DNA from: a virus
IMG/VR virus record: IMGVR_UViG_3300044617_001156
Reading direction: 5' to 3' (one strand)
Length of the DNA: 64,000 nt
Position numbers and translations under genes: made by a program. The notes under the pieces are model-generated. The model saw nothing but the letters and a program-made list of their open reading frames with translations, was not told the DNA's origin and ran no database searches. Positions 5,976 through 35,220 of this stretch are shown one piece after another (within the stretch, counting starts at the first letter, position 1; each line of letters begins with the position of its first letter).

Positions 5976-6070
5976 TAGTAACAAGAGGAAGGGAGTTTGC
6001 CTCATCTAAGTAAACAAAGTGACTTCTGTAAAGTAGAGATAATTCCTATTCATTTGGTGATGTGGATTAT

Positions 6071-6101
6071 AGAGAGGGGAGTGGTGTCCTCTCTCTTTTT
6101 T
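6071..6101 (+). terminator. Rho-independent terminator
   Basis: AGAGAGGGGA-gtggtg-TCCTCTCTCT then a T run. Confidence 0.75.
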
Positions 6102-6176
6102 ATTGTCTAAAAACCTTGTTTTAATGCTTAAATGTTAGGAAATCAATAAAAAAAGGCTATTTTAAATATATCTGAG

Positions 6177-6219
6177 TTTTCAACAGCCTTGTGGAAAAGT
6201 GTGTGGAATATGTGGAAAA
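6177..6219. promoter_or_regulatory. Cluster of four DnaA-box-like 9-mers (cyanobacterial TTTTCCACA type)
   Basis: TTTTCAACA 6177-6185, TGTGGAAAA 6190-6198, TGTGGAATA 6202-6210, TGTGGAAAA 6211-6219; adjacent AT-rich tract at about 6097-6176. Confidence 0.55.
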
Positions 6220-6284
6220 ATACCCTTATGAAGTCTTATAATACCCTTTAAAGCCTCATAGACCTTGTGATCTTACGTTGCGTC

Positions 6285-6313
6285 AGCCTAACACATAAGT
6301 TCTCACACGTCAA
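6285..6313 (-). promoter_or_regulatory. sigma70-like promoter on the minus strand, facing the DnaA-box cluster
   Basis: TTGACG-17 nt-TAGGCT on the minus strand. Confidence 0.4.
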
Positions 6314-6410
6314 CCCCCACTTTCCCGGAATATCATAAAATCCCCACACAACTCCCAGAATACTCTGAGACCCCTCTAAAATCGCCTGTAAGGACACTAA
6401 ATACCAACAC

Positions 6411-24923: not shown

Positions 24924-26477
24924 ATGTCTGCAATTATAACTGACCAATTAAGAATACTGAATGCGAAGAGTTTTGTTTCGGGAATAACAACCACCGATAA
25001 TGCTTATTACTCTTTTATAGGATTACCTAACGCAACTGATTATTCTTCAACCTGGGATGTTACTCCTCCTGCACCTATTGATAATTTTGATCAGGAGAAT
25101 GACTATTACGATACTATGATTGCTTTGAAGAGAATTAGATCTGATGACGTAAGACAGATGATTAGGAAGGTTACCTGGTCATCTGGAACAACTTATGATA
25201 TGTATCGCCACGATATTAGTCGCAATAATACTTCAAAACCATCTGGAGCTACAAGTCTTTATTACGCAAATTATTACGTATTGAATAGTGATTATCGAGT
25301 TTATATTTGCCTAGATAATGGAATAAGTCCAGAAACTCCAAGTGGAAGACCTTCACTGGATGAACCAACTTTCACTGATCTAGAACCAAGATCGGCAGGA
25401 AATAGTGGCGATGGATATATTTGGAAATATCTTTATACAATTAGACCTAGTGAAATTGTAAAATTTGATTCTACTGATTACATACCCGTTCCTATTGACT
25501 GGGAAACGAGTGATAGGGACTCCGCAGTTAGAAATAATGCAACAACAAGCGGACAGTTGAAGGTTATAACAATCACTAATCGTGGTGTTGGTGTTGGAAC
25601 TGCAAACAGAGTTTATAGTAGAGTGCCAATTAGAGGTGATGGAACTGGAGCAGAAGCAACTATTCTAGTCAACAGTGAGTCAAAAGTAGAATCTATTACT
25701 ATTTCAAATGGGGGATCTGGATATACTTATGGTTCAGTTGATTTAGAAACTGGTGGTGTACCCACCGGAACAACAAGACCTACTTTTGATGTAATCATTC
25801 CACCAAAAGGAGGTCACGGAGCAGATATTTACAGAGAACTTGGTGCTTTTAATGTTTTAGTTTATTCTAGAATTGAAAATGATGACCAAAATCCAGATTT
25901 TATAACTGGAAACCAAATCGCGAGAATTGGTTTAGTTGAAAACCCAGAAGCGTTCAATTCAACTAATATACTTGATGTAAATAGGGCAAGTGCAGTATAT
26001 GCTATTAAATTATCTGGTATAGCATATAGTACAACCACATTTGATGCAGATTCAAGAATTTTCCAAACAGTTGGAACAGGAATAACTGCAGTAGGAAGAG
26101 TTATCTCTTACAATCAAAATACTGGAGTTCTTAAATATTGGCAAGACAGAACCTTCGTTGGATTCAATACTAATGGAACTCAAAATAATTCTCCACAATA
26201 TGGATTTAACTTGACTAGATTTACTGCTTCTCCATCTACTGGAGGAAGTGTTACGATTACTGGAGGTTCTTCGAATCTGGGAATTGATACTACGTTTACT
26301 GGCGTCACCACCACTATAAATAATAGAAATTATTATCTGGGACAGTCCTTCGCAAATGGAGTGTCCAATCCAGAAGTTAAAAAATACTCTGGAAACATTA
26401 TTTACGTGGACAATAGACCATCAATAACCAGGTCTCAAAACCAAAAAGAAGATATAAAAGTTATTTTGCAATTCTAA
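24924..26477 (+). CDS. gp8: Baseplate wedge subunit
   Basis: WSSGTTYDMY...YRVYICLDNG...DGYIWKYLY...YVDNRPSITRS; late promoter ATAAATA at 24899. Confidence 0.93.
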   Translation: MSAIITDQLRILNAKSFVSGITTTDNAYYSFIGLPNATDYSSTWDVTPPAPIDNFDQENDYYDTMIALKRIRSDDVRQMIRKVTWSSGTTYDMYRHDISRNNTSKPSGATSLYYANYYVLNSDYRVYICLDNGISPETPSGRPSLDEPTFTDLEPRSAGNSGDGYIWKYLYTIRPSEIVKFDSTDYIPVPIDWETSDRDSAVRNNATTSGQLKVITITNRGVGVGTANRVYSRVPIRGDGTGAEATILVNSESKVESITISNGGSGYTYGSVDLETGGVPTGTTRPTFDVIIPPKGGHGADIYRELGAFNVLVYSRIENDDQNPDFITGNQIARIGLVENPEAFNSTNILDVNRASAVYAIKLSGIAYSTTTFDADSRIFQTVGTGITAVGRVISYNQNTGVLKYWQDRTFVGFNTNGTQNNSPQYGFNLTRFTASPSTGGSVTITGGSSNLGIDTTFTGVTTTINNRNYYLGQSFANGVSNPEVKKYSGNIIYVDNRPSITRSQNQKEDIKVILQF

Positions 26478-26483
26478 AAAATT

Positions 26484-29400
26484 ATGCCTCAAGAAACTAA
26501 TCTCAATGTATCTCCATATTTTGATGATTTTGATGCGAATAAGAACTTTTATAAGGTTCTTTTTAAACCTGGACAACCAGTACAAGCAAGAGAACTAACC
26601 ACTCTACAATCAATACTCCAAAATCAAATTGAAACCTTCGGAAATCATATTTTCAAAGAGGGTTCATTGGTAATTCCCGGTGGATTGAATTATATTCCTA
26701 ACCTCATAGGAGTGCAAATTCAACCTACTTTTAATGGAGTATCTGTAGATAGTTACATTGATAATTTATTAAATCGGGACATTATAGGAGAAGATTCTGG
26801 TGCTAGAGCTAGGGTTGTAAGAATACTCAAAGCAGGAGAAGAGGGTAATCCATTTACCCTTTTGTATTGTACATTTAAATCTGATGCAAATTCTTTCTTA
26901 AGTCAGGAAAATTTACTAACCGAGTCTGTAGTATCTCCAGGATTCTCTACATTAACTCAGATAAATTCAGGACAATCTTTCTGTACGACAATTGTAGAAA
27001 ATCCAAATGTACTTGGTTCTGCTCTTATTGTAAATGAGGGAGTATATTTTATCCGTGGATATTTCATAAATGTACCAACTCAAAATATTATTTTAGATTG
27101 GAACAATAATTTTCCGTCTTATAGTGTTGGATTTGAAATATTTGAGGAAATTATTACCGCAGATGATGATTCCTCTTTATATGATAATGCAAGAGGATTT
27201 TCTAACTTTGCAGCTCCTGGTTCAGATAGATTCAAGATTACTGCAGTATTAGATAAAAGACAGATTACTGTTAATGAAACCAATTCAGTAACCGATAAAA
27301 ATTATGTTGAAATTTTTAGAGTTCTTGAAGGAGATCTTAAAAAATTAAATCGCAATGCTCAATATGATGAAATTGCAAAGGAATTTGCCAGAAGAACTTA
27401 TGATGAATCTGGAGATTATTATGTAAGACCATTTACAATAGAAGTAAAAGAATCTTTAAATGATTTCCTAGGAAACGATGGTGCTTATTTTCCCGAGGAA
27501 ATTACTTCTCAGGGACTAACACCAAGTGAAGACTTAGGTGTTTATAAAATATCTGCAGGTAAGGCATATATTCAAGGATATGAAGTAGAAAATTTAGGAA
27601 CTCAACTTTTAGATTTTGTAAAACCAAGAACTACAAAAGAACTTAGAAATCAATATATCAATTTTGCCAATGGTTCATCATTTACTTTAAATCGTGTTTA
27701 TGGAGCTCCTTCTTTAGAAATAGATGGTTCTTATATCGTAAGCCTCAGAGATTCTAGAGTTGGCGTATCTCAGACTACTGCTCCGGGGAAAGAAATTGGA
27801 TTGGCAAGAGTTTATGATTTTGCTTTAGAATCTGGTCTTTATAATGAAAGTGTGGAGAATCTCAATGAATGGGATATTTCATTGTATGATATTCAAATGT
27901 ATAATGAATTTACATTGAATGAACCAACTACACTAACGATTCCAACTCATATTAAAGGAAAAGCAAGTGGAGCAACTGCGTTTTTACGATATGCAACATC
28001 TAACTCTGGAATTATCACTGCATACAATATTGAAGGAAACTTCCAAGTTGGAGAAAAGTTAATATTTGATGATAAAGAAACTAATGCAAGAGTTTCAATA
28101 GCAGTAACTGAGTATGGGGTATCTGATGTAAGTTCTTTATATGGAATTGTTGGTACAGCATATACTTTTACTGGAGATGTTAAACCCATTGTTGTTGCAG
28201 ATTTTGGTCCAGTTTCAATTAGTACCGCTTCTGTTGGAATTAGCACTGTACGCACAAGTAATCCAGATTTATTCTTTAATGTAGCACTAAAGAAAAACGA
28301 TATAGTAACATATAATGTTCCTGGAATTTCTACTTTTACATACTCACGGGTAGTATCAGTATCAGAAAAATCATTTACTATTGCAGGAATTACCACCGTT
28401 GCCGGAATATGTGAAGGTGCGTTACCTTCATCTGCGGTTAATTTAAATAATATCTTCTTACTAAAGTCTCCGCTTAAAGAATCATCAAATAACACTTTAT
28501 TTACACCTCTACCCAAAGAAAATGTATCAACGGTAGATTTAACAGATTCATATCTGTTTATTAGAAGAGAGTTTGACGTACAAATTTCGGCAAATGCAGT
28601 TACAATTTCTCCGACGGCATTAGAATCAACCGAGTTTTTCGTTCCATTTGATGAGGAAGACTATGTGTTAGTTAGGAAAGATGGAGAATTAGAACCACTT
28701 TCTTCAGATAAGTTCTCATTTACTGATAATAATAGAGGGCTTTCAATATTTGGTCTTGGAACTAATAGTGATGCAAGACTCATAGCAACTATTCAAAGAG
28801 TTAAAATTAAGGCAAAACAAAAGAATAAGATTAAAATTTCAACTCTTACTCTAGATAAATCTTCAAATCCAGGTTCTGGAATTGGCGCTACTACATTAAA
28901 TGATGGATTAGTTTATGGAAATTATCCTTATGGAACAAGAGTTCAAGACTCTGAAATTTGTTTAAATTATCCGGATGTAAGTAAGATTTATGGGGTTTTT
29001 GAATCAAGTAATACTTCTGATCCTATTTTACCATCACTTTCATTAATTGATATTAATGGTGCAAATGGAACAGTTGATGATTTAATTATTGGTGAGGAAA
29101 TTTATGGATCTAATAGTCTTGCTGTGGGAAGATATGTAGGTAAAGTGAATTCAACCACAATAAATTATGTTTTGATTTCTGATAATACATTTTTGGAGGA
29201 TGAAATAATTACCTTCAGAGAATCTGGAACAAGTGGAACTATTAATACTATAGAGATAAGTTCTAATGATATTTCGGACAACTATACTTTTTCTCAAGGA
29301 ACAAAAAATTACATTTATGATTATTCATCCTTACTATTAAATAAAGATAAACTTCCACCATCCAAAAAAATAACACTTGTTTTTGAAAGAGGAGAATATT

Positions 29401-30518
29401 CAGACTCTGATACCGGAGATCTGACTACTATAGATTCTTATGCTCAGTATGATTGGTGCGAAGTTCCATTTACAGATGGAATCAATAATGGCGACACAAT
29501 TGATTTACGTCCTAGAGTCGCTAATTACATAGTTTTAGAGAATTCTAGGTCACCATTAGAATTCTTAGGTAGATCTTTTGGTGTTACTGGAAATTCTGCA
29601 CGAAATATTATCGCATCAGATACTTCCATAGTATCTAATTATTCTTATTACGTAGGAAGAATTGATAAAATTTATCTATCCAGAGATAATACCCTTCAAG
29701 TGAGACAGGGAGAACCATCAGATAATCCACTACCACCAGAACCAATTGAAAATGCTCTGGAAATTGCTACTGTGATTATTCCACCTTATCAGTGTAACGC
29801 AGAAAGTGCTTTAGTAATTCTTACTGAGCATAAAAGATATCAGATGAAAGATATTGCAAGACTCGAAAATAGAATTAAGAATCTAGAGTATTACACTACA
29901 TTATCATTACTGGAAAAAGATACTTCAACTCTAACTATTAAAGATGTGAATGGTATTGATAGATTTAAGAGTGGTTTATTTGTAGATAACTTTAAGACTA
30001 CGACATTCCAAATTAAAGAAACGGAAGTTAAGAATAGTATTGACATGAAGAGAGGTGAGTTAAGACCAACACCATATACGACTGAAATTGATCTTTTATT
30101 AGGTGATAATACTCTTCTAAATAATGAAGATACATTTTTTACATCTTATGACGCCAAGTACGCTACTGATTTAATTGGTATCGGAGTGACTCGTAGTGGT
30201 ATTAATCCCACTAGCGCCGGCAAAGGTGTGATTACGCTAAATTATAGAGAAGTAGTTGAAATATCACAACCATTTGCAACAAGAATTGAAAATGTGACCC
30301 CTTACTTCGTAACAGTTTATGATGGAATTATGGATTTAAATCCATCATCAGACATCTGGGTTGATAGAACTCAACTAAGTCCATTAACAGTAGAAGGATT
30401 TACTGCACAAATGACTACAACTACATTACAACTTACAAAAGAACAAATAGACACTCAAGGCGGATGGAGTCCAATCGTATGGGATTCTTGGTCTGACCAG
30501 TGGGCTGGTAGTTTCTAA
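26484..30518 (+). CDS. VrlC-like virion/baseplate structural protein, N-terminal half
   Basis: PYFDDFD...YKVLFKPG.PVQARELTTLQSILQNQI; RYQMKDIARLENRIKNLEYYTTLSLLE; position after gp8. Confidence 0.85.
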   Translation: MPQETNLNVSPYFDDFDANKNFYKVLFKPGQPVQARELTTLQSILQNQIETFGNHIFKEGSLVIPGGLNYIPNLIGVQIQPTFNGVSVDSYIDNLLNRDIIGEDSGARARVVRILKAGEEGNPFTLLYCTFKSDANSFLSQENLLTESVVSPGFSTLTQINSGQSFCTTIVENPNVLGSALIVNEGVYFIRGYFINVPTQNIILDWNNNFPSYSVGFEIFEEIITADDDSSLYDNARGFSNFAAPGSDRFKITAVLDKRQITVNETNSVTDKNYVEIFRVLEGDLKKLNRNAQYDEIAKEFARRTYDESGDYYVRPFTIEVKESLNDFLGNDGAYFPEEITSQGLTPSEDLGVYKISAGKAYIQGYEVENLGTQLLDFVKPRTTKELRNQYINFANGSSFTLNRVYGAPSLEIDGSYIVSLRDSRVGVSQTTAPGKEIGLARVYDFALESGLYNESVENLNEWDISLYDIQMYNEFTLNEPTTLTIPTHIKGKASGATAFLRYATSNSGIITAYNIEGNFQVGEKLIFDDKETNARVSIAVTEYGVSDVSSLYGIVGTAYTFTGDVKPIVVADFGPVSISTASVGISTVRTSNPDLFFNVALKKNDIVTYNVPGISTFTYSRVVSVSEKSFTIAGITTVAGICEGALPSSAVNLNNIFLLKSPLKESSNNTLFTPLPKENVSTVDLTDSYLFIRREFDVQISANAVTISPTALESTEFFVPFDEEDYVLVRKDGELEPLSSDKFSFTDNNRGLSIFGLGTNSDARLIATIQRVKIKAKQKNKIKISTLTLDKSSNPGSGIGATTLNDGLVYGNYPYGTRVQDSEICLNYPDVSKIYGVFESSNTSDPILPSLSLIDINGANGTVDDLIIGEEIYGSNSLAVGRYVGKVNSTTINYVLISDNTFLEDEIITFRESGTSGTINTIEISSNDISDNYTFSQGTKNYIYDYSSLLLNKDKLPPSKKITLVFERGEYSDSDTGDLTTIDSYAQYDWCEVPFTDGINNGDTIDLRPRVANYIVLENSRSPLEFLGRSFGVTGNSARNIIASDTSIVSNYSYYVGRIDKIYLSRDNTLQVRQGEPSDNPLPPEPIENALEIATVIIPPYQCNAESALVILTEHKRYQMKDIARLENRIKNLEYYTTLSLLEKDTSTLTIKDVNGIDRFKSGLFVDNFKTTTFQIKETEVKNSIDMKRGELRPTPYTTEIDLLLGDNTLLNNEDTFFTSYDAKYATDLIGIGVTRSGINPTSAGKGVITLNYREVVEISQPFATRIENVTPYFVTVYDGIMDLNPSSDIWVDRTQLSPLTVEGFTAQMTTTTLQLTKEQIDTQGGWSPIVWDSWSDQWAGSF

Positions 30519-30534
30519 TAAGGAGGAATAAAAA

Positions 30535-33500
30535 ATGGCATCACGTTCAAGCGGAAGTGGAAGAGGCGGTAGCGGCGGCGGCGGCGGTAGCGGCAGCGGA
30601 GGAGGCGGCGGCGGCGGCGGAGGCGGCGGCGGTGGTGGAGGAGGTGGAGGCGGCGGCGGCGGAGGCGGCGGCGGCGGCGGAGGAGGAGGCGGCGGCGGTG
30701 GAGGCGGCGGCCGCGGCGGAAGCAGTGGTGGATCCAGCAGTAGCAGCAGTGGCGGTGCCAGCAGAACATCCTCACCAAGTAGATCGGCTGGCGGTGGAGC
30801 ATCATCTTCACCTTCATCTTCACCTTCATCCTCAACTTCAGCTTCAAGATCAGCACCATCCTCACCTAGAGGAGTTGCCACTTCTGCACCCGCAAGAACA
30901 TCTTCTATAGGTCCTGGAGGCGTTGTAGCAGGCGTTGGATTCAATAATAGTTTAACAACGAACGCTACCAGAGTTAGCACTCTTACGCAAGCAGTTAATT
31001 CAATTGCCGCAGGAGCGCAGTCTTCATTTATTTCACGACCAACGCTAACCTCTTTTTTTGGTCGTCCAATTGCAGGATTTACTGTTGTCAATAATGAGAG
31101 TGGTGCCGATAGAGTCAAAGCCGTTCGGGCGCCGATTCAGCGACCGGGGGAACCGACAAAAACACCAACAGGTGATCCGGAGAGAGGAGATCCGCCCAAA
31201 CCTTGCCCAGATCCAAATACACTAATTTTATTATCTGATGGATCACAAAAAAGAGCTGGAGATCTTCAAGTCGGAGATACACTAAGAACTCAACATGAGG
31301 ATACTCTAGAGTGGGGAGAACATAATGTTACTTATGTAGAAATTGTAAGTGCGGAAAAATTAATCCTTACTTTTGATAATGTAGAGTTTGTCTGTTCTAC
31401 TTCTCACAAGTTCTATGTGGAAGGTAAAGGGTGGACTGAAGTTAACCAAATGGAAATTGGTGACTCTGTACTTGGTTTGGAACAGTCTCATAAGTTACTC
31501 GAAGTAAAGGAAGGAACTTATGGTGATGTAGTTGTTATTCAAGTTGAAGACGCACATACTTATATTTCTGAAGGACTACTATCTCACAACAAAACCATTG
31601 GTGATTTTCCTAGTGGTGGTGGTGGCGGAGGTGGCGGCGGTGGCGGTGGCACCTTTATTCCAGGAACTCCAACAATATTTGAAGAAACTACTACCGGAAC
31701 AATATCAAGAACTGGATTTGCTACAAGAATTAACACCACATTTAACAATAAGAGTTTAGGTAATAAACTTTTAAGTCTGGATGTTCTTCCTTACATGAGA
31801 TCCAGAAACATCGAATTTATTGCAAAAAAACTGAAACCAAACACTCTGTTATATCCATTCTTTGATGGTCGAAATGTTTATGAGTACATAGTACCTAAAA
31901 TTCTTGAAATTGAAATGATTTCGGGAACTTTTGTTACCGGAGAAACTGTTGTCGGAGCTTTTCTTCTCGCCAATCCTTCAAACATAAATACAACATCAAC
32001 TCAATCATCAATTCAGTTCCGTCTTGCTGCTTATAATCACAAGTATGGACCTTTTAATGCACCAATTGATGTATATTCTTCAAGTCCATATAATAGGGCA
32101 GAACAACTTCAACCATACTCACCATCATCTACAACACTAAATGTAGATACAACAAGTCTTTCTGATTTATCTCTTGGAACTTATGGTGGTAATGTTTTTG
32201 TTGGAATGATTTTGATTGGCAAACAAAGTGGAGCAGTATCTAGAGTTAGAGAAATAAGACTTGTATCAGATAATGTCGGTACAGTTATTGGTTCTTTCTT
32301 TATTCCTAATCCAAATAGAGCAGGAAATGCAAAATTCTCTACTGGAAATAAAACATTCAGATTAACTGATAATCCAACCAATGGTACAATTGGTGGTACT
32401 TTATATACTTATGCAAATGCTAACTTCTTTGCCGATGGATTAATAACTCAGGCACAAGAGACTATCTTATCCATACGTAATATTGAAACTCAAATTGCCG
32501 TTGTAAGTGAAATTACGACAACTACAAATACAACAGTAACATCTGTACCAGGAACTCCAGTATTTGTTCCTAATTTACCCCCACCACCACCTCCCGCACC
32601 AGCTCCATCCCCAACGCCTATCCCGACCCCAACTCCAGTACCACCAGTACCAATACCAGTACCAAGACCAGTACCAACAACCCCGACTCAACCAAAGCAA
32701 GTAACTGTTCGATCTGTTGGTGGTGATGGTGGCGGCGATGATCCACTCGCACAAACATTTAAAATTGGTTCCGACGAAGACATAATTGGAAGATATGTTA
32801 CTTCAGTAGATCTTTTCTTCTACACCAAATCATCAGAACTTCCTGTTTATGTTGAACTAAGACCAGTTGAACTTGGAGTTCCTACAAAAAAAATCTACCC
32901 ATTTAGTAAGGTAGAAATATTACCACAAAATATTAATGTTTCAACTGACGGAACAGTAGCAACAAGAGTTACTTTCCCCGCACCAGTATTCCTTGAAGGT
33001 AATAAAGAACATGCATTAGTTCTTCTTGCAAGTACAAGTGATTATAGTGTCTTTATATCAAGACTTGGTGAAATTGATATTACAACAGCAGCACTTCCAG
33101 AGTCTCAACAGAGGTTAGTTGCAACTCAACCAACTCTTGGATCTCTCTTTAAATCTCAGAATGCTGCTACTTGGTCACCTTCTCAGTATGAAGACCTCAA
33201 GTTTAATCTTTATTCTGCTGTTTTTGAACCTAGTGGAACTGTAAGTTTCTTTAATCCAGAACTGAATAGAAGTAATGACCAGATTGCCATTCTTCGTAAT
33301 AATGCATTAGACATTGAATCCAGAAGAGTTAGAGTTGGTTTAGGAACTACATTATCAGTATCAACCATTTCAGATCTAACTGAAGGAAGTTTTGTAAGAC
33401 AAAGAGATACGAATGCAATTGGCGATTTTGCTTATGTAACAGGTATAACTACCGGTTCCTTAACTATTACTAACTCTGGTATTGGATATACTCCATCTAT

Positions 33501-35220
33501 AGGAGTTCAAACTTACTCTAATGTTTCACTTACATCTATTGATGGATATGGTAGAGGAGCAACAGCAAATATTACAGTTACCAATGGGATTATTACTGCT
33601 GCCGGAATTTCTTCAGGTGGTACCGGATATCAAGTCGGAGAAATACTAACTGCCGATGCGATTGGTATTACTTCAATTGGTAGAAATTTAAGACTCTCTG
33701 TTGGTCAACTTTTTGCATTCAATGAATTAGTAGTAGATAATGTACAGGGCGAATTCCAAGTTGGAGTTGCAAAGTCTATTCAATACTTTAGTACACTTCC
33801 AGGAATTGGATATACTGACCTTAATGGAGGTTCAGTATTTGCAAATGATATTATTGCAGAAAGAGAAGGACTATATGTTAATGTGAAACATAGAAATCAC
33901 GGAATGCACGCTTTAACTAACGTGGTTCGTATTTCTAATGCTTTTTCCGATATTGCTCCCATCAAACTGACCAATGATGTTGAAAGAGACTTCACAGGTA
34001 ACCTTGTAGTTACTGGACTTACCACTTCTTTCAATACTTTTGAAAATGTTGGTATTTCTTCCACAAATCCAGGTTATCTTGTAGTCAACTCAGAAATTAT
34101 TTCATATACTGGAGTAGATGGAAATTCCATTACTGGTATTACTAGAGGTGTTGATTCAACACTTCAAATCAGACATCCGTCAAATTCTTTTGTTTATAAG
34201 TATGAACTCGCCGGAGTTTCTCTGAGACGAATTAATACCACGCATACACTACAGGATGTAACTGATATTACTAAAGAAAATACTTTAGATTCTTATTATA
34301 TTAAAATTGACCATTCGACTAATGGTGTGGACAGAAGTAGCAATGTAAGTTTCCCTAAACTTTACTTTAACTCCACAAAGTCAACGGGTGGTTCAATTAT
34401 TGAAGCAACTCAAAATATTCCATATGATATTGCTCAACCAATCGTTCAAACTTTCACACCACCACAAACAACTATTACTGCCTCATTGAGGACGATTAGT
34501 GGAACAAGTATTGATGGTTCAGAAGAATCATTCTTAGATAGAGGAACTCAAGTTATTAAGTTAAATCAAAATAACTTCTTCGAAAATCCAAGAATTATAG
34601 CATCTAGAGTCAATGAAAGACTTTTCCTGAATAACTTAATTCAGGGAAATAAATCACTACAACTCACTTTAAATTTATCAACAACAAATCAATACTTATC
34701 TCCAGTTATTGACCTTGATAGAGTGGGAATGATTTTAGCATCAAATAGAGTTAATGCACCAGTAACAGCTTATTCTCTAGATGAAAGAATATCTCTCATA
34801 GAAACTGATCCTAATGCATTTGTATATGTTTCCAAACCAATTGGACTTGAAGTTCCTGCAACGTCTATTAGAGTTATTGTTTCTGCGCATTTGAACATTT
34901 ATAATGATCTAAGAGCATTATTTGCTATTATGAAAGATCCAAATGAAACTCCAGTTTATTATCCCTTCCCAGGAAATGGAAATATAAGTGGTGATGGTAG
35001 AACTATTAACGTTTCATACAATGATGGAAGACCTGATCTTCCACTTAAAGTTACTTCAAAACTTGGATTCTTAAGTGAAGAACTGAATTTCCTTGACTAT
35101 GAATTTACTGTGAACAATCTTGAATCGTTTAAATATTTTAGCATAAAACTCATAGGTGCTTCAACCTCTCAAACATATCCACCAAGATTTAGAGATTTAA
35201 GAATTATTGCTCTTGCATAA
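30535..35220 (+). CDS. VrlC-like structural protein, C-terminal half, preceded by a Gly/Ser-rich leader and a Hint domain
   Basis: AAGGAGG SD; PYMRSRNIEF, DPLAQTF, GSLFKSQN..TW...QYEDLKF, PRFRDLRIIALA motifs. Confidence 0.85.
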   Translation: MASRSSGSGRGGSGGGGGSGSGGGGGGGGGGGGGGGGGGGGGGGGGGGGGGGGGGGGGGRGGSSGGSSSSSSGGASRTSSPSRSAGGGASSSPSSSPSSSTSASRSAPSSPRGVATSAPARTSSIGPGGVVAGVGFNNSLTTNATRVSTLTQAVNSIAAGAQSSFISRPTLTSFFGRPIAGFTVVNNESGADRVKAVRAPIQRPGEPTKTPTGDPERGDPPKPCPDPNTLILLSDGSQKRAGDLQVGDTLRTQHEDTLEWGEHNVTYVEIVSAEKLILTFDNVEFVCSTSHKFYVEGKGWTEVNQMEIGDSVLGLEQSHKLLEVKEGTYGDVVVIQVEDAHTYISEGLLSHNKTIGDFPSGGGGGGGGGGGGTFIPGTPTIFEETTTGTISRTGFATRINTTFNNKSLGNKLLSLDVLPYMRSRNIEFIAKKLKPNTLLYPFFDGRNVYEYIVPKILEIEMISGTFVTGETVVGAFLLANPSNINTTSTQSSIQFRLAAYNHKYGPFNAPIDVYSSSPYNRAEQLQPYSPSSTTLNVDTTSLSDLSLGTYGGNVFVGMILIGKQSGAVSRVREIRLVSDNVGTVIGSFFIPNPNRAGNAKFSTGNKTFRLTDNPTNGTIGGTLYTYANANFFADGLITQAQETILSIRNIETQIAVVSEITTTTNTTVTSVPGTPVFVPNLPPPPPPAPAPSPTPIPTPTPVPPVPIPVPRPVPTTPTQPKQVTVRSVGGDGGGDDPLAQTFKIGSDEDIIGRYVTSVDLFFYTKSSELPVYVELRPVELGVPTKKIYPFSKVEILPQNINVSTDGTVATRVTFPAPVFLEGNKEHALVLLASTSDYSVFISRLGEIDITTAALPESQQRLVATQPTLGSLFKSQNAATWSPSQYEDLKFNLYSAVFEPSGTVSFFNPELNRSNDQIAILRNNALDIESRRVRVGLGTTLSVSTISDLTEGSFVRQRDTNAIGDFAYVTGITTGSLTITNSGIGYTPSIGVQTYSNVSLTSIDGYGRGATANITVTNGIITAAGISSGGTGYQVGEILTADAIGITSIGRNLRLSVGQLFAFNELVVDNVQGEFQVGVAKSIQYFSTLPGIGYTDLNGGSVFANDIIAEREGLYVNVKHRNHGMHALTNVVRISNAFSDIAPIKLTNDVERDFTGNLVVTGLTTSFNTFENVGISSTNPGYLVVNSEIISYTGVDGNSITGITRGVDSTLQIRHPSNSFVYKYELAGVSLRRINTTHTLQDVTDITKENTLDSYYIKIDHSTNGVDRSSNVSFPKLYFNSTKSTGGSIIEATQNIPYDIAQPIVQTFTPPQTTITASLRTISGTSIDGSEESFLDRGTQVIKLNQNNFFENPRIIASRVNERLFLNNLIQGNKSLQLTLNLSTTNQYLSPVIDLDRVGMILASNRVNAPVTAYSLDERISLIETDPNAFVYVSKPIGLEVPATSIRVIVSAHLNIYNDLRALFAIMKDPNETPVYYPFPGNGNISGDGRTINVSYNDGRPDLPLKVTSKLGFLSEELNFLDYEFTVNNLESFKYFSIKLIGASTSQTYPPRFRDLRIIALA
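30598..30711 (+). repeat. GGH trinucleotide repeat encoding 38 consecutive glycines
   Basis: Counted directly; only GGC, GGA and GGT codons, never GGG. Confidence 0.95.
31204..31590 (+). other. Hint (intein-like autoprocessing) domain, 129 aa, no endonuclease
   Basis: Begins CPDPNTLILLSDG.QKRAGDLQVGD, block B CSTSHKF, ends VEDAHTYISEGLLSHN; +1 residue is Lys. Confidence 0.88.

Follow-up and report, generated by a model that had tools for sequence, protein, structure and literature searches.

Why should a giant baseplate protein, which cultured cyanophages encode as one chain, be divided between two genes in an uncultured virus, with a domain of the self-processing Hint type near the start of the second? 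The question is raised by IMG/VR virus record IMGVR_UViG_3300044617_001156, a stretch of 64,000 nucleotides that is referred to here as the window. Two long open reading frames (ORFs) are found between gp8 and gp13 in its tail and baseplate module. ORF1 encodes the N-half of a DUF4815 or 'VrlC-like' baseplate protein, while ORF2 encodes a Gly-rich leader, the Hint domain, a Gly linker and the conserved C-half (Table 1). A first-pass annotation of this DNA had combined the gene split, the poly-Gly leader and the Hint into a single device, with a possible role in maturation or payload release. Comparison with relatives indicates instead that the fission, the Hint and the poly-Gly are three separate events. 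We therefore favour, with a probability of roughly 0.7, a reading in which the Hint resembles a type-A bacterial intein-like (BIL) domain and forms an optional self-removing insert in a permissive linker, not an indispensable maturation device.

The junction between the two genes can be read directly in the assembled window. The N-half was found to end in WDSWSDQWAGSF, followed by two TAA codons (30516-30521, the second at 30519-30521). The ATG of ORF2 (30535) is located 13 nucleotides past the second stop, with its reading frame shifted by +1 from that of the N-half, and a further TAA at 30529-30531 shuts the frame of ORF2 upstream of this ATG. The end of the N-half, its double stop, the Shine-Dalgarno sequence and the new start in another frame had all been reported in the first-pass annotation and were confirmed in the sequence. 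Both halves belong to one family, as they match the phrog_358 profile of giant baseplate proteins (E values of 0 and 1.5e-248 for the two halves) and lie between gp8 and gp13/gp14. Residues 383-1561 of ORF2 cover profile positions 1167-2055. In cultured cyanophages this protein is a single coding sequence of 2505-2542 residues without a Hint, and the two ORFs of the window align to its two ends. For example, the N-half is 44% identical to residues 1-1344 of the 2542-residue protein of phage SynMITS9220M01.

Table 1. Features of the split baseplate locus and its neighbours in the window.
Feature	Position	Strand	Remarks
gp8	24924-26477		Upstream of both baseplate ORFs
N-half gene (ORF1), giant DUF4815 / 'VrlC-like' baseplate protein	26484-30518	+	1344 residues; PF16075 E 2.2e-57; phrog_358 positions 1-1149 of 2056
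Shine-Dalgarno sequence AAGGAGG	30520-30526	+	8 nucleotides 5' of the ORF2 ATG; read directly
ORF2	30535-35220	+	1561 residues: leader, Hint, Gly linker, C-half; relatives P0001-P0012 are laid out likewise
Leader, residues 1-223	30535-31203	+	Low-complexity, Gly/Ser/Pro-rich; unalignable across most relatives
(GCG)49 trinucleotide repeat, read as poly-Gly	30572-30719	+	Found with TRF; GC up to 86% against ~35% in the genome region
RPGEPTK motif (consensus RPQEPTK)	31141-31161	+	The one part of the leader that is conserved; 14 residues separate it from Cys224; shared by relatives with and without the Hint
Hint domain (type-A BIL-like), residues 224-352	31204-31590	+	129 residues; Cys224-Pro-Asp-Pro start, Ser288-x-x-His291 (block B), His351-Asn352 (block G)
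T-x-H-E-D-T-x-E motif, residues 252-259	31288-31311	+	Invariant in alignment A1 (37-80% identity); not in BIL2 in the hidden Markov model (HMM) alignment
Lys353	31591-31593	+	+1 residue after the Hint
G12 linker	31615-31650	+	After the Hint; relatives have a Pro-rich linker instead
Conserved C-half (TTTG..RTG..PYMRSRN onward)	31651-35217	+	Includes linker 2 (~32515-32750)
gp13-like gene	35607		Downstream of both baseplate ORFs; start position only
gp14	36458		Downstream of both baseplate ORFs; start position only

An assembly or sequencing error, a pseudogene, or two ORFs joined by frameshifting, read-through or bypassing could in principle mimic such a split. We therefore surveyed the 80 viral contigs that best match the end of the N-half, a census that relies on metagenome assemblies. 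A stop at the site of the break, the first low-complexity linker of the protein (linker 1), was observed in only two of them, and these are the two closest (84-85% identity). The other 78 have no stop there, and each of them that extends far enough downstream continues through the site in frame, which agrees with the earlier statement that homologues are usually one polypeptide. The stop-GGAG-ATG junction is nevertheless shared with ten other assemblies from different samples (L007, L008, L009, L010, L023, L103, L104, L105, L106 and L107), and the gene calls for two further contigs, which carry P0006 and P0012, show the identical layout. The frame relation between the ORFs varies among the split relatives. 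In several of them both ORFs share one frame with a single TAA between them, where rare read-through is conceivable, whereas the window combines the +1 offset with three stops, two in the frame of the N-half and one in that of ORF2. Since the frame relation differs between relatives while the Shine-Dalgarno sequence and ATG are conserved, a conserved recoding signal is excluded and separate initiation is supported. Recoding was therefore rejected, and an artefact or recoded origin of the junction as a whole is hardly credible. These observations indicate that the split is real and conserved, and two chains are therefore expected, as had been proposed for the window alone. Because the Shine-Dalgarno sequence and the ATG follow the second stop so closely, translation of ORF2 probably depends on coupling or re-initiation.

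The domain that follows the leader was assessed by structure prediction and profile searches. Its AlphaFold2 model has a mean predicted local distance difference test (pLDDT) score of 87.9. Foldseek placed BIL2 first among the matches to this model (E 2.4e-11, template modelling (TM) score 0.79-0.81), followed by DnaB mini-inteins, the BIL structure 2LWY, gp41-1 and Hedgehog HhC, and the match probability was 1.00 for BIL2, BIL, inteins and HhC. A profile built on alignment A1, which comprises 11 Hint homologues, recovered BIL2 (6Y75/6TMM, E 2.7e-10), the C. thermocellum BIL (2LWY, 2e-8) and the gp41-1 intein (6e-7) among PDB sequences, and tblastn of the Hint found true mini-inteins in Corynebacterium-phage terminases (E 2e-9). 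The Hint call of the first-pass annotation is thus far beyond chance, and its coordinates were reproduced, with a leader of 223 residues, the Cys224 codon at 31204, His351-Asn352 at 31585-31590 and Lys at +1. Pfam was less sensitive. When whole ORF2 was searched, the Hint families were missed and nothing was returned except a spurious sub-threshold match to AXH; with the Hint alone, PT-HINT (PF07591) scored 23.9 bits against a gathering cut-off of 27.7, and Hom_end_hint, Intein_splicing and Hint were also sub-threshold. The relatives P0013, P0014 and P0027 score 30-42 bits with PT-HINT, above the cut-off. A six-frame HMM scan of the window revealed no second copy of the Hint.

The residues expected of an active Hint are conserved at two depths of comparison. 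Within A1, which reaches down to 37% identity, Cys1, the His of block B and the terminal His-Asn are all invariant, and the third position before that block-B His is always Ser or Thr. Searching 1.84 billion representatives with the Hint profile yielded 183 clusters (50% identity) at E <=1e-30 and 1145 at <=1e-10. The 147 best representatives were fetched, and they contain 159 domain ends. Cys was observed to come first in 139 of the 147 domain starts and His-Asn last in 158 of the 159 ends, while the +1 residue is Lys in 126 ends and Ser or Thr in only five. Lys likewise prevails at +1 among the closer relatives, where P0012 is one close relative with Ser. The ratio of non-synonymous to synonymous substitution rates (dN/dS), computed over seven close relatives, is 0.114 for the Hint, compared with 0.155 and 0.103 for two structural segments of ORF2. 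From the conserved catalytic residues and this ratio we infer autocatalytic cleavage; the Hint is real, looks active and most likely processes itself. The T-x-H-E-D-T-x-E motif is not among the usual intein blocks; it could bind a metal or serve as the base that activates an amine nucleophile.

A catalytically dead Hint, retained as a structural spacer in a full-length ORF2, would account for Pro at -1 and at position 2, both unusual for inteins, and for the sub-threshold Pfam scores. This is very unlikely, however, given that no catalytic position varies among sequences of 37-88% identity and that Cys1 and His-Asn are near-invariant among the 147 representatives. The low dN/dS value and the confidently predicted Hint fold argue in the same direction.

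Among known systems, type-A BIL domains (C. thermocellum BIL, PDB 2LWY; PT-HINT PF07591) are among the closest to this Hint. The horseshoe beta fold (Foldseek against 2LWY, E 3.5e-9, TM 0.77-0.83), the N-terminal nucleophile Cys224 and the S/T-x-x-H of block B place the domain in the HINT superfamily. The C-terminal His-Asn, the lack of Cys, Ser or Thr at +1, the absence of a homing endonuclease and a location in a hypervariable linker, with the non-alignable leader on one side and a Pro/Gly linker on the other, are those of a type-A BIL. Every type-A feature that can be read from sequence thus appears to be present, apart from the Pfam gathering score of the window copy. The phage domain differs in its host, which is a baseplate protein here and a bacterial surface or toxin protein in the known cases, and no toxin follows it. 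It also differs in the C-P-x-P start, the invariant T-x-H-E-D-T-x-E and the near-invariant +1 Lys of its family. Known Hint domains of the BIL type occur in surface and toxin proteins of bacteria and in a ubiquitin-like locus of a ciliate, and we found no paper on Hint or BIL domains in structural (tail) proteins of cyanophages or other phages.

The best match in both sequence profile and structure is BIL2 from the BUBL1 polyubiquitin-like locus of Tetrahymena thermophila (PDB 6TMM, 6Y75). Both are domains of the self-processing type located between modules of a polyprotein, although processing in the phage is predicted. The two are only 22-23% identical, and BIL2 has eukaryotic ubiquitin-like flanks and no HEDT motif. 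Class-1 mini-inteins (gp41-1, DnaB and the Corynebacterium-phage terminase inteins) share the fold (TM ~0.75-0.8), Cys1, T-x-x-H and His-Asn. They sit in conserved active-site motifs, whereas the window Hint sits in a linker that is probably disordered and shows a pattern of presence and absence without sign of homing. A canonical class-1 intein was rejected since the +1 residue is Lys353 and not Cys, Ser or Thr, which makes canonical trans-esterification impossible, and since Hint-less relatives are continuous across the linker site. The Hint without a +1 nucleophile that the first-pass annotation had described was borne out, and the domain is intact. A split intein or fractured gene was also rejected, because the N-half ends at a conserved W..W...W.G motif with no piece of a Hint, and because the window contains a single, complete Hint that is preceded by 223 residues of ORF2. 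The pre-toxin HINT of polymorphic toxins does not apply either, as the domain is followed by the conserved structural C-half (phrog_358 1167-2055) and not by a variable toxin domain.

The order in which these elements arose was deduced from the split clade, which comprises 15 protein clusters at 90% identity. The Hint is present in 12 of them (P0001-P0012) and absent from three (P0031, P0032, which is L023, and P0033, which is L106). The Hint-less forms retain the split junction, the leader, an RPQEPT-like motif and the Pro-rich linker; only the Hint is gone. When the C-half tree was rooted on fused outgroups, Hint-less P0033 branches first, with 95/95 support for the rest, and P0031 and P0032 are nested deep within the Hint-bearing forms with support of 97-100. 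The linker-1 Hints form a single clade (88/89 support) in the Hint-domain tree, in which the sequences are short and the deep nodes weak. Fission preceded the Hint because the earliest-branching split relative, P0033/L106, has the identical junction and no Hint. The simplest history suggested by these trees is therefore fission, one Hint gain and two clean losses. The homologue comparison that the first-pass annotation had called for thus confines this split to the clade of the window, and its one-device proposal is not supported on three counts: the split predates the Hint, the Hint was lost twice, and the (GCG)49 tract is private to the window. Nothing was found that points to a payload.

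This history bears on whether the Hint could be a domesticated maturation device, in which the leader is a pro-peptide, an assembly inhibitor or a Gly-rich peptide to be released or transferred and Hint cleavage is required to free the C-half. Such a role would agree with retention of the Hint in 12 of the 15 clusters, with its low dN/dS and with the short RPQEPTK motif upstream of it. It would also fit a Hint that is more conserved than the host segments (84-88% identity in 11 of the 12 clusters, 74% in the twelfth). However, two nested clean losses and one basal absence, each with leader and linker intact, show that phages manage without the domain, and the clean losses in P0031 and P0032 with the leader kept indicate that it is dispensable. 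Since the Hint-less phages keep the leader fused to the C-half, removal of the leader cannot be essential, and a self-removing passenger is a better match to this pattern than a switch for maturation. The leader is moreover older than the Hint, its Gly-rich part is unique to the window, and members of the Hint family are also found in many phage proteins unrelated to this one, some at the C-terminus and some as tandem arrays. A required maturation step is for these reasons rather unlikely.

Related Hints were observed in several other contexts. Linker 2 of other DUF4815 proteins carries Hints 50-58% identical to that of the window, both in fully fused proteins of 2779-2935 residues (P0025-28) and in proteins that end shortly past the Hint (P0016-19). 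Others occur as tandem pairs (P0013-15) or form the very C-terminal end of tail proteins (P0021-24, P0029-30, L016-22), and Hints of different host proteins interleave in the Hint tree. In L016-L022 (~6001-6393 each), phage contigs of up to 167 kb, a 41%-identical Hint ends a 1925-residue protein with His-Asn-Thr-Lys-stop. With two residues after the Hint, only the N-terminal reaction can matter there. A second case of the leader-Hint-protein layout was noticed in an unrelated phage tail module (L014, 5899-8124), where a protein of 741 residues consists of a 39-residue leader, a Hint (51% identical) and ~575 residues without a family match. In another DUF4815 lineage (L004, 11338-12962; also L005 and L006) the first ORF, of 2233 residues, passes linker 2 into a Hint and continues for 329 further residues without a family match. 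An overlapping 87-residue ORF comes next, in which a Peptidase_S74 intramolecular-chaperone domain scores 31.5 bits, and an 834-residue ORF after it encodes the rest of the protein, so that two different self-cutting modules adjoin at one gene break.

In the favoured reading, the 129-residue type-A BIL-like Hint would have been inserted in the linker between the leader and the structural C-half of ORF2. Cys224 would form a thioester with the preceding residue, and cyclisation of Asn352 would cut the chain before Lys353. Characterised type-A BILs combine such an N-terminal thioester with a C-terminal cut via Asn cyclisation, and cleavage products dominate (PMC4031507, PMC7664689). By analogy, Asn352-dependent release of a C-half that starts at Lys353 is expected, and the leader would then be discarded with or without the Hint. 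A second outcome would be attack of the Lys353 amine on the thioester, by which the leader would be re-joined to the C-half, as can occur in type-A BILs and Tetrahymena BIL2. Alternatively, the leader could stay on the Hint. Pro at -1 is expected to slow the N-terminal step of the intein reaction and to disfavour thioester formation. Pro223 occupies this position in the window phage and probably slows the N-terminal step there, favouring C-terminal cleavage. The insert would stay active because it must remove itself.

The second outcome deserves separate weighing, as it would turn the Hint into a ligase in which the thioester is accepted by the +1 Lys, through its alpha or epsilon amine, or by a Lys on a different baseplate protein, and the leader is re-joined or cross-linked without adenosine triphosphate (ATP). 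The predominance of Lys at +1, with hardly any Ser, Thr or Cys, is consistent with this, as is retention of the leader in Hint-bearing and Hint-less lineages, as if the final product were equal. Type-A BILs can join their flanks when the amine set free by cleavage attacks the thioester (PMC4031507). BIL2, the closest solved structure, was reported to form K(epsilon-NH2)-C-terminus isopeptide bonds through the Lys epsilon-amine without ATP (PMC8616854), which matches the conserved Lys of the phage Hint. Characterised type-A BILs nevertheless give mainly cleavage products, and many family members have only 2-7 residues past the Hint and hence nothing useful to ligate onto. The ligase argument is furthermore one of analogy with BIL systems, and Pro223 at -1 should disfavour the thioester. 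We regard ligation in the window phage as possible but unlikely. The broader proposal is more doubtful still: that the Lys+1 Hint family consists of ATP-free ligases, with the Cys224 thioester resolved by Lys353 or a neighbouring baseplate Lys to give an isopeptide-branched or re-joined product and covalent links in the baseplate.

Several points weigh against the Hint being a mere self-removing insert. Its presence in most clusters of the clade and its purifying selection, equal to that of the structural domains, also fit a domesticated function. Simple self-cleavage does not explain the near-invariant +1 Lys or the invariant T-x-H-E-D-T-x-E, and the Hint contains no homing endonuclease that would account for movement or precise loss. 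The window copy falls short of the PT-HINT gathering score, and Hint activity and its products are predictions for this and the related phages. 

Whichever chemistry applies, the natural history of the clade separates the question of Hint activity from that of whether the phage needs the domain. The locus adds to known BIL systems a split-gene context and a dated series of one fission, one Hint gain and two clean losses in one close clade. If the ligase reading were true, the Hint-bearing and Hint-less members would form a natural control series. The 183-cluster subfamily, with its near-invariant post-cut Lys and extra His-Glu-Asp-Thr motif, offers a testable hint of amine-directed ligation like that of BIL2. 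A 129-residue domain that needs no Cys, Ser or Thr after it may also interest protein engineers. In addition, the giant baseplate protein of marine T4-like phages appears to tolerate breaks at low-complexity linkers, by fission or by predicted self-cleavage, and such tolerated chain breaks bear on the assembly of these baseplates.

The leader that precedes the Hint evolves fast and is probably disordered. In relatives its length varies from 51 to 119 residues and it is mostly not alignable; the extra length in the window is accounted for by the (GCG)49 expansion, which none of the relatives has and whose length is given as assembled. Selection on the leader is relaxed and not neutral, with a dN/dS of ~0.40 compared with 0.10-0.15 for the folded parts; the leader value comes from a single reliable close pair, too few to tell whether the mature protein still contains the leader. 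An AlphaFold2 model of the leader, Hint and start of the C-half (alignment A3) has a mean pLDDT of 34.6, too low to show disorder or docking of the leader. Folded as RNA, the (GCG)n tract that follows the start codon showed no structure beyond that expected from composition (z = -0.78). The GC-rich repeat also reads as ORFs of 116-230 residues on the minus strand (30426-31118 and 30515-30865) and the plus strand (30557-30910). These poly-Pro, poly-Arg and poly-Ala frames were rejected as genes and are considered by-products of the repeat, and the minus-strand ones have no homologue support. The Gly run that had been noted after the Hint is present, although it comprises 12 residues and not 11. 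A short Gly run downstream of the Hint was likewise found in the nearest relative, P0010.

The window is identified from its genes as an uncultured marine T4-like myovirus related to the cyanomyoviruses. Its nearest cultured relatives are myoviruses of Synechococcus and Prochlorococcus, whose gp14 shares no more than 58% identity with its own. A homing-endonuclease gene of the I-HmuI/NUMOD-like type was observed between gp13 and gp14 in the split-clade relative L104 (11296-11841); it is missing from the window and does not lie next to the Hint.

Breaks were also observed at the second low-complexity linker of the protein. About ten of the 80 contigs in the census (L031, L033, L034, L045, L050, L052, L053, L056, L066 and L071) have a first ORF that ends 324-560 residues past the N-half. 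These stops fall in linker 2, which carries no Hint there. Gene fission at linker 2 thus seems common in the DUF4815 family, and breakage at low-complexity linkers appears to be a recurring, tolerated event. Compared with linker-2 fission, the break at linker 1 and the placement of a Hint in a new N-terminal leader were found only in the clade of the window. Linker 1 of the fused relatives shows extreme low complexity of varied kinds. For example, in L042 the W..W...W.G motif is followed by a stretch of ~60 residues rich in Trp, Tyr and Arg, while residues ~1360-1440 of P0018 and P0019 are rich in Arg and Lys. Linker 1 may be described as a hotspot of repeat expansion, of which the poly-Gly of the window is one more case. 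Linker 2 of the window (32515-32750) contains a Pro-rich tract of 75 residues with 12-bp repeats at 32643-32677. In close relatives this linker has ~290 additional Pro-rich residues with a D-x-N-G-D-G motif that resembles a calcium loop (L103, 2444-3313).

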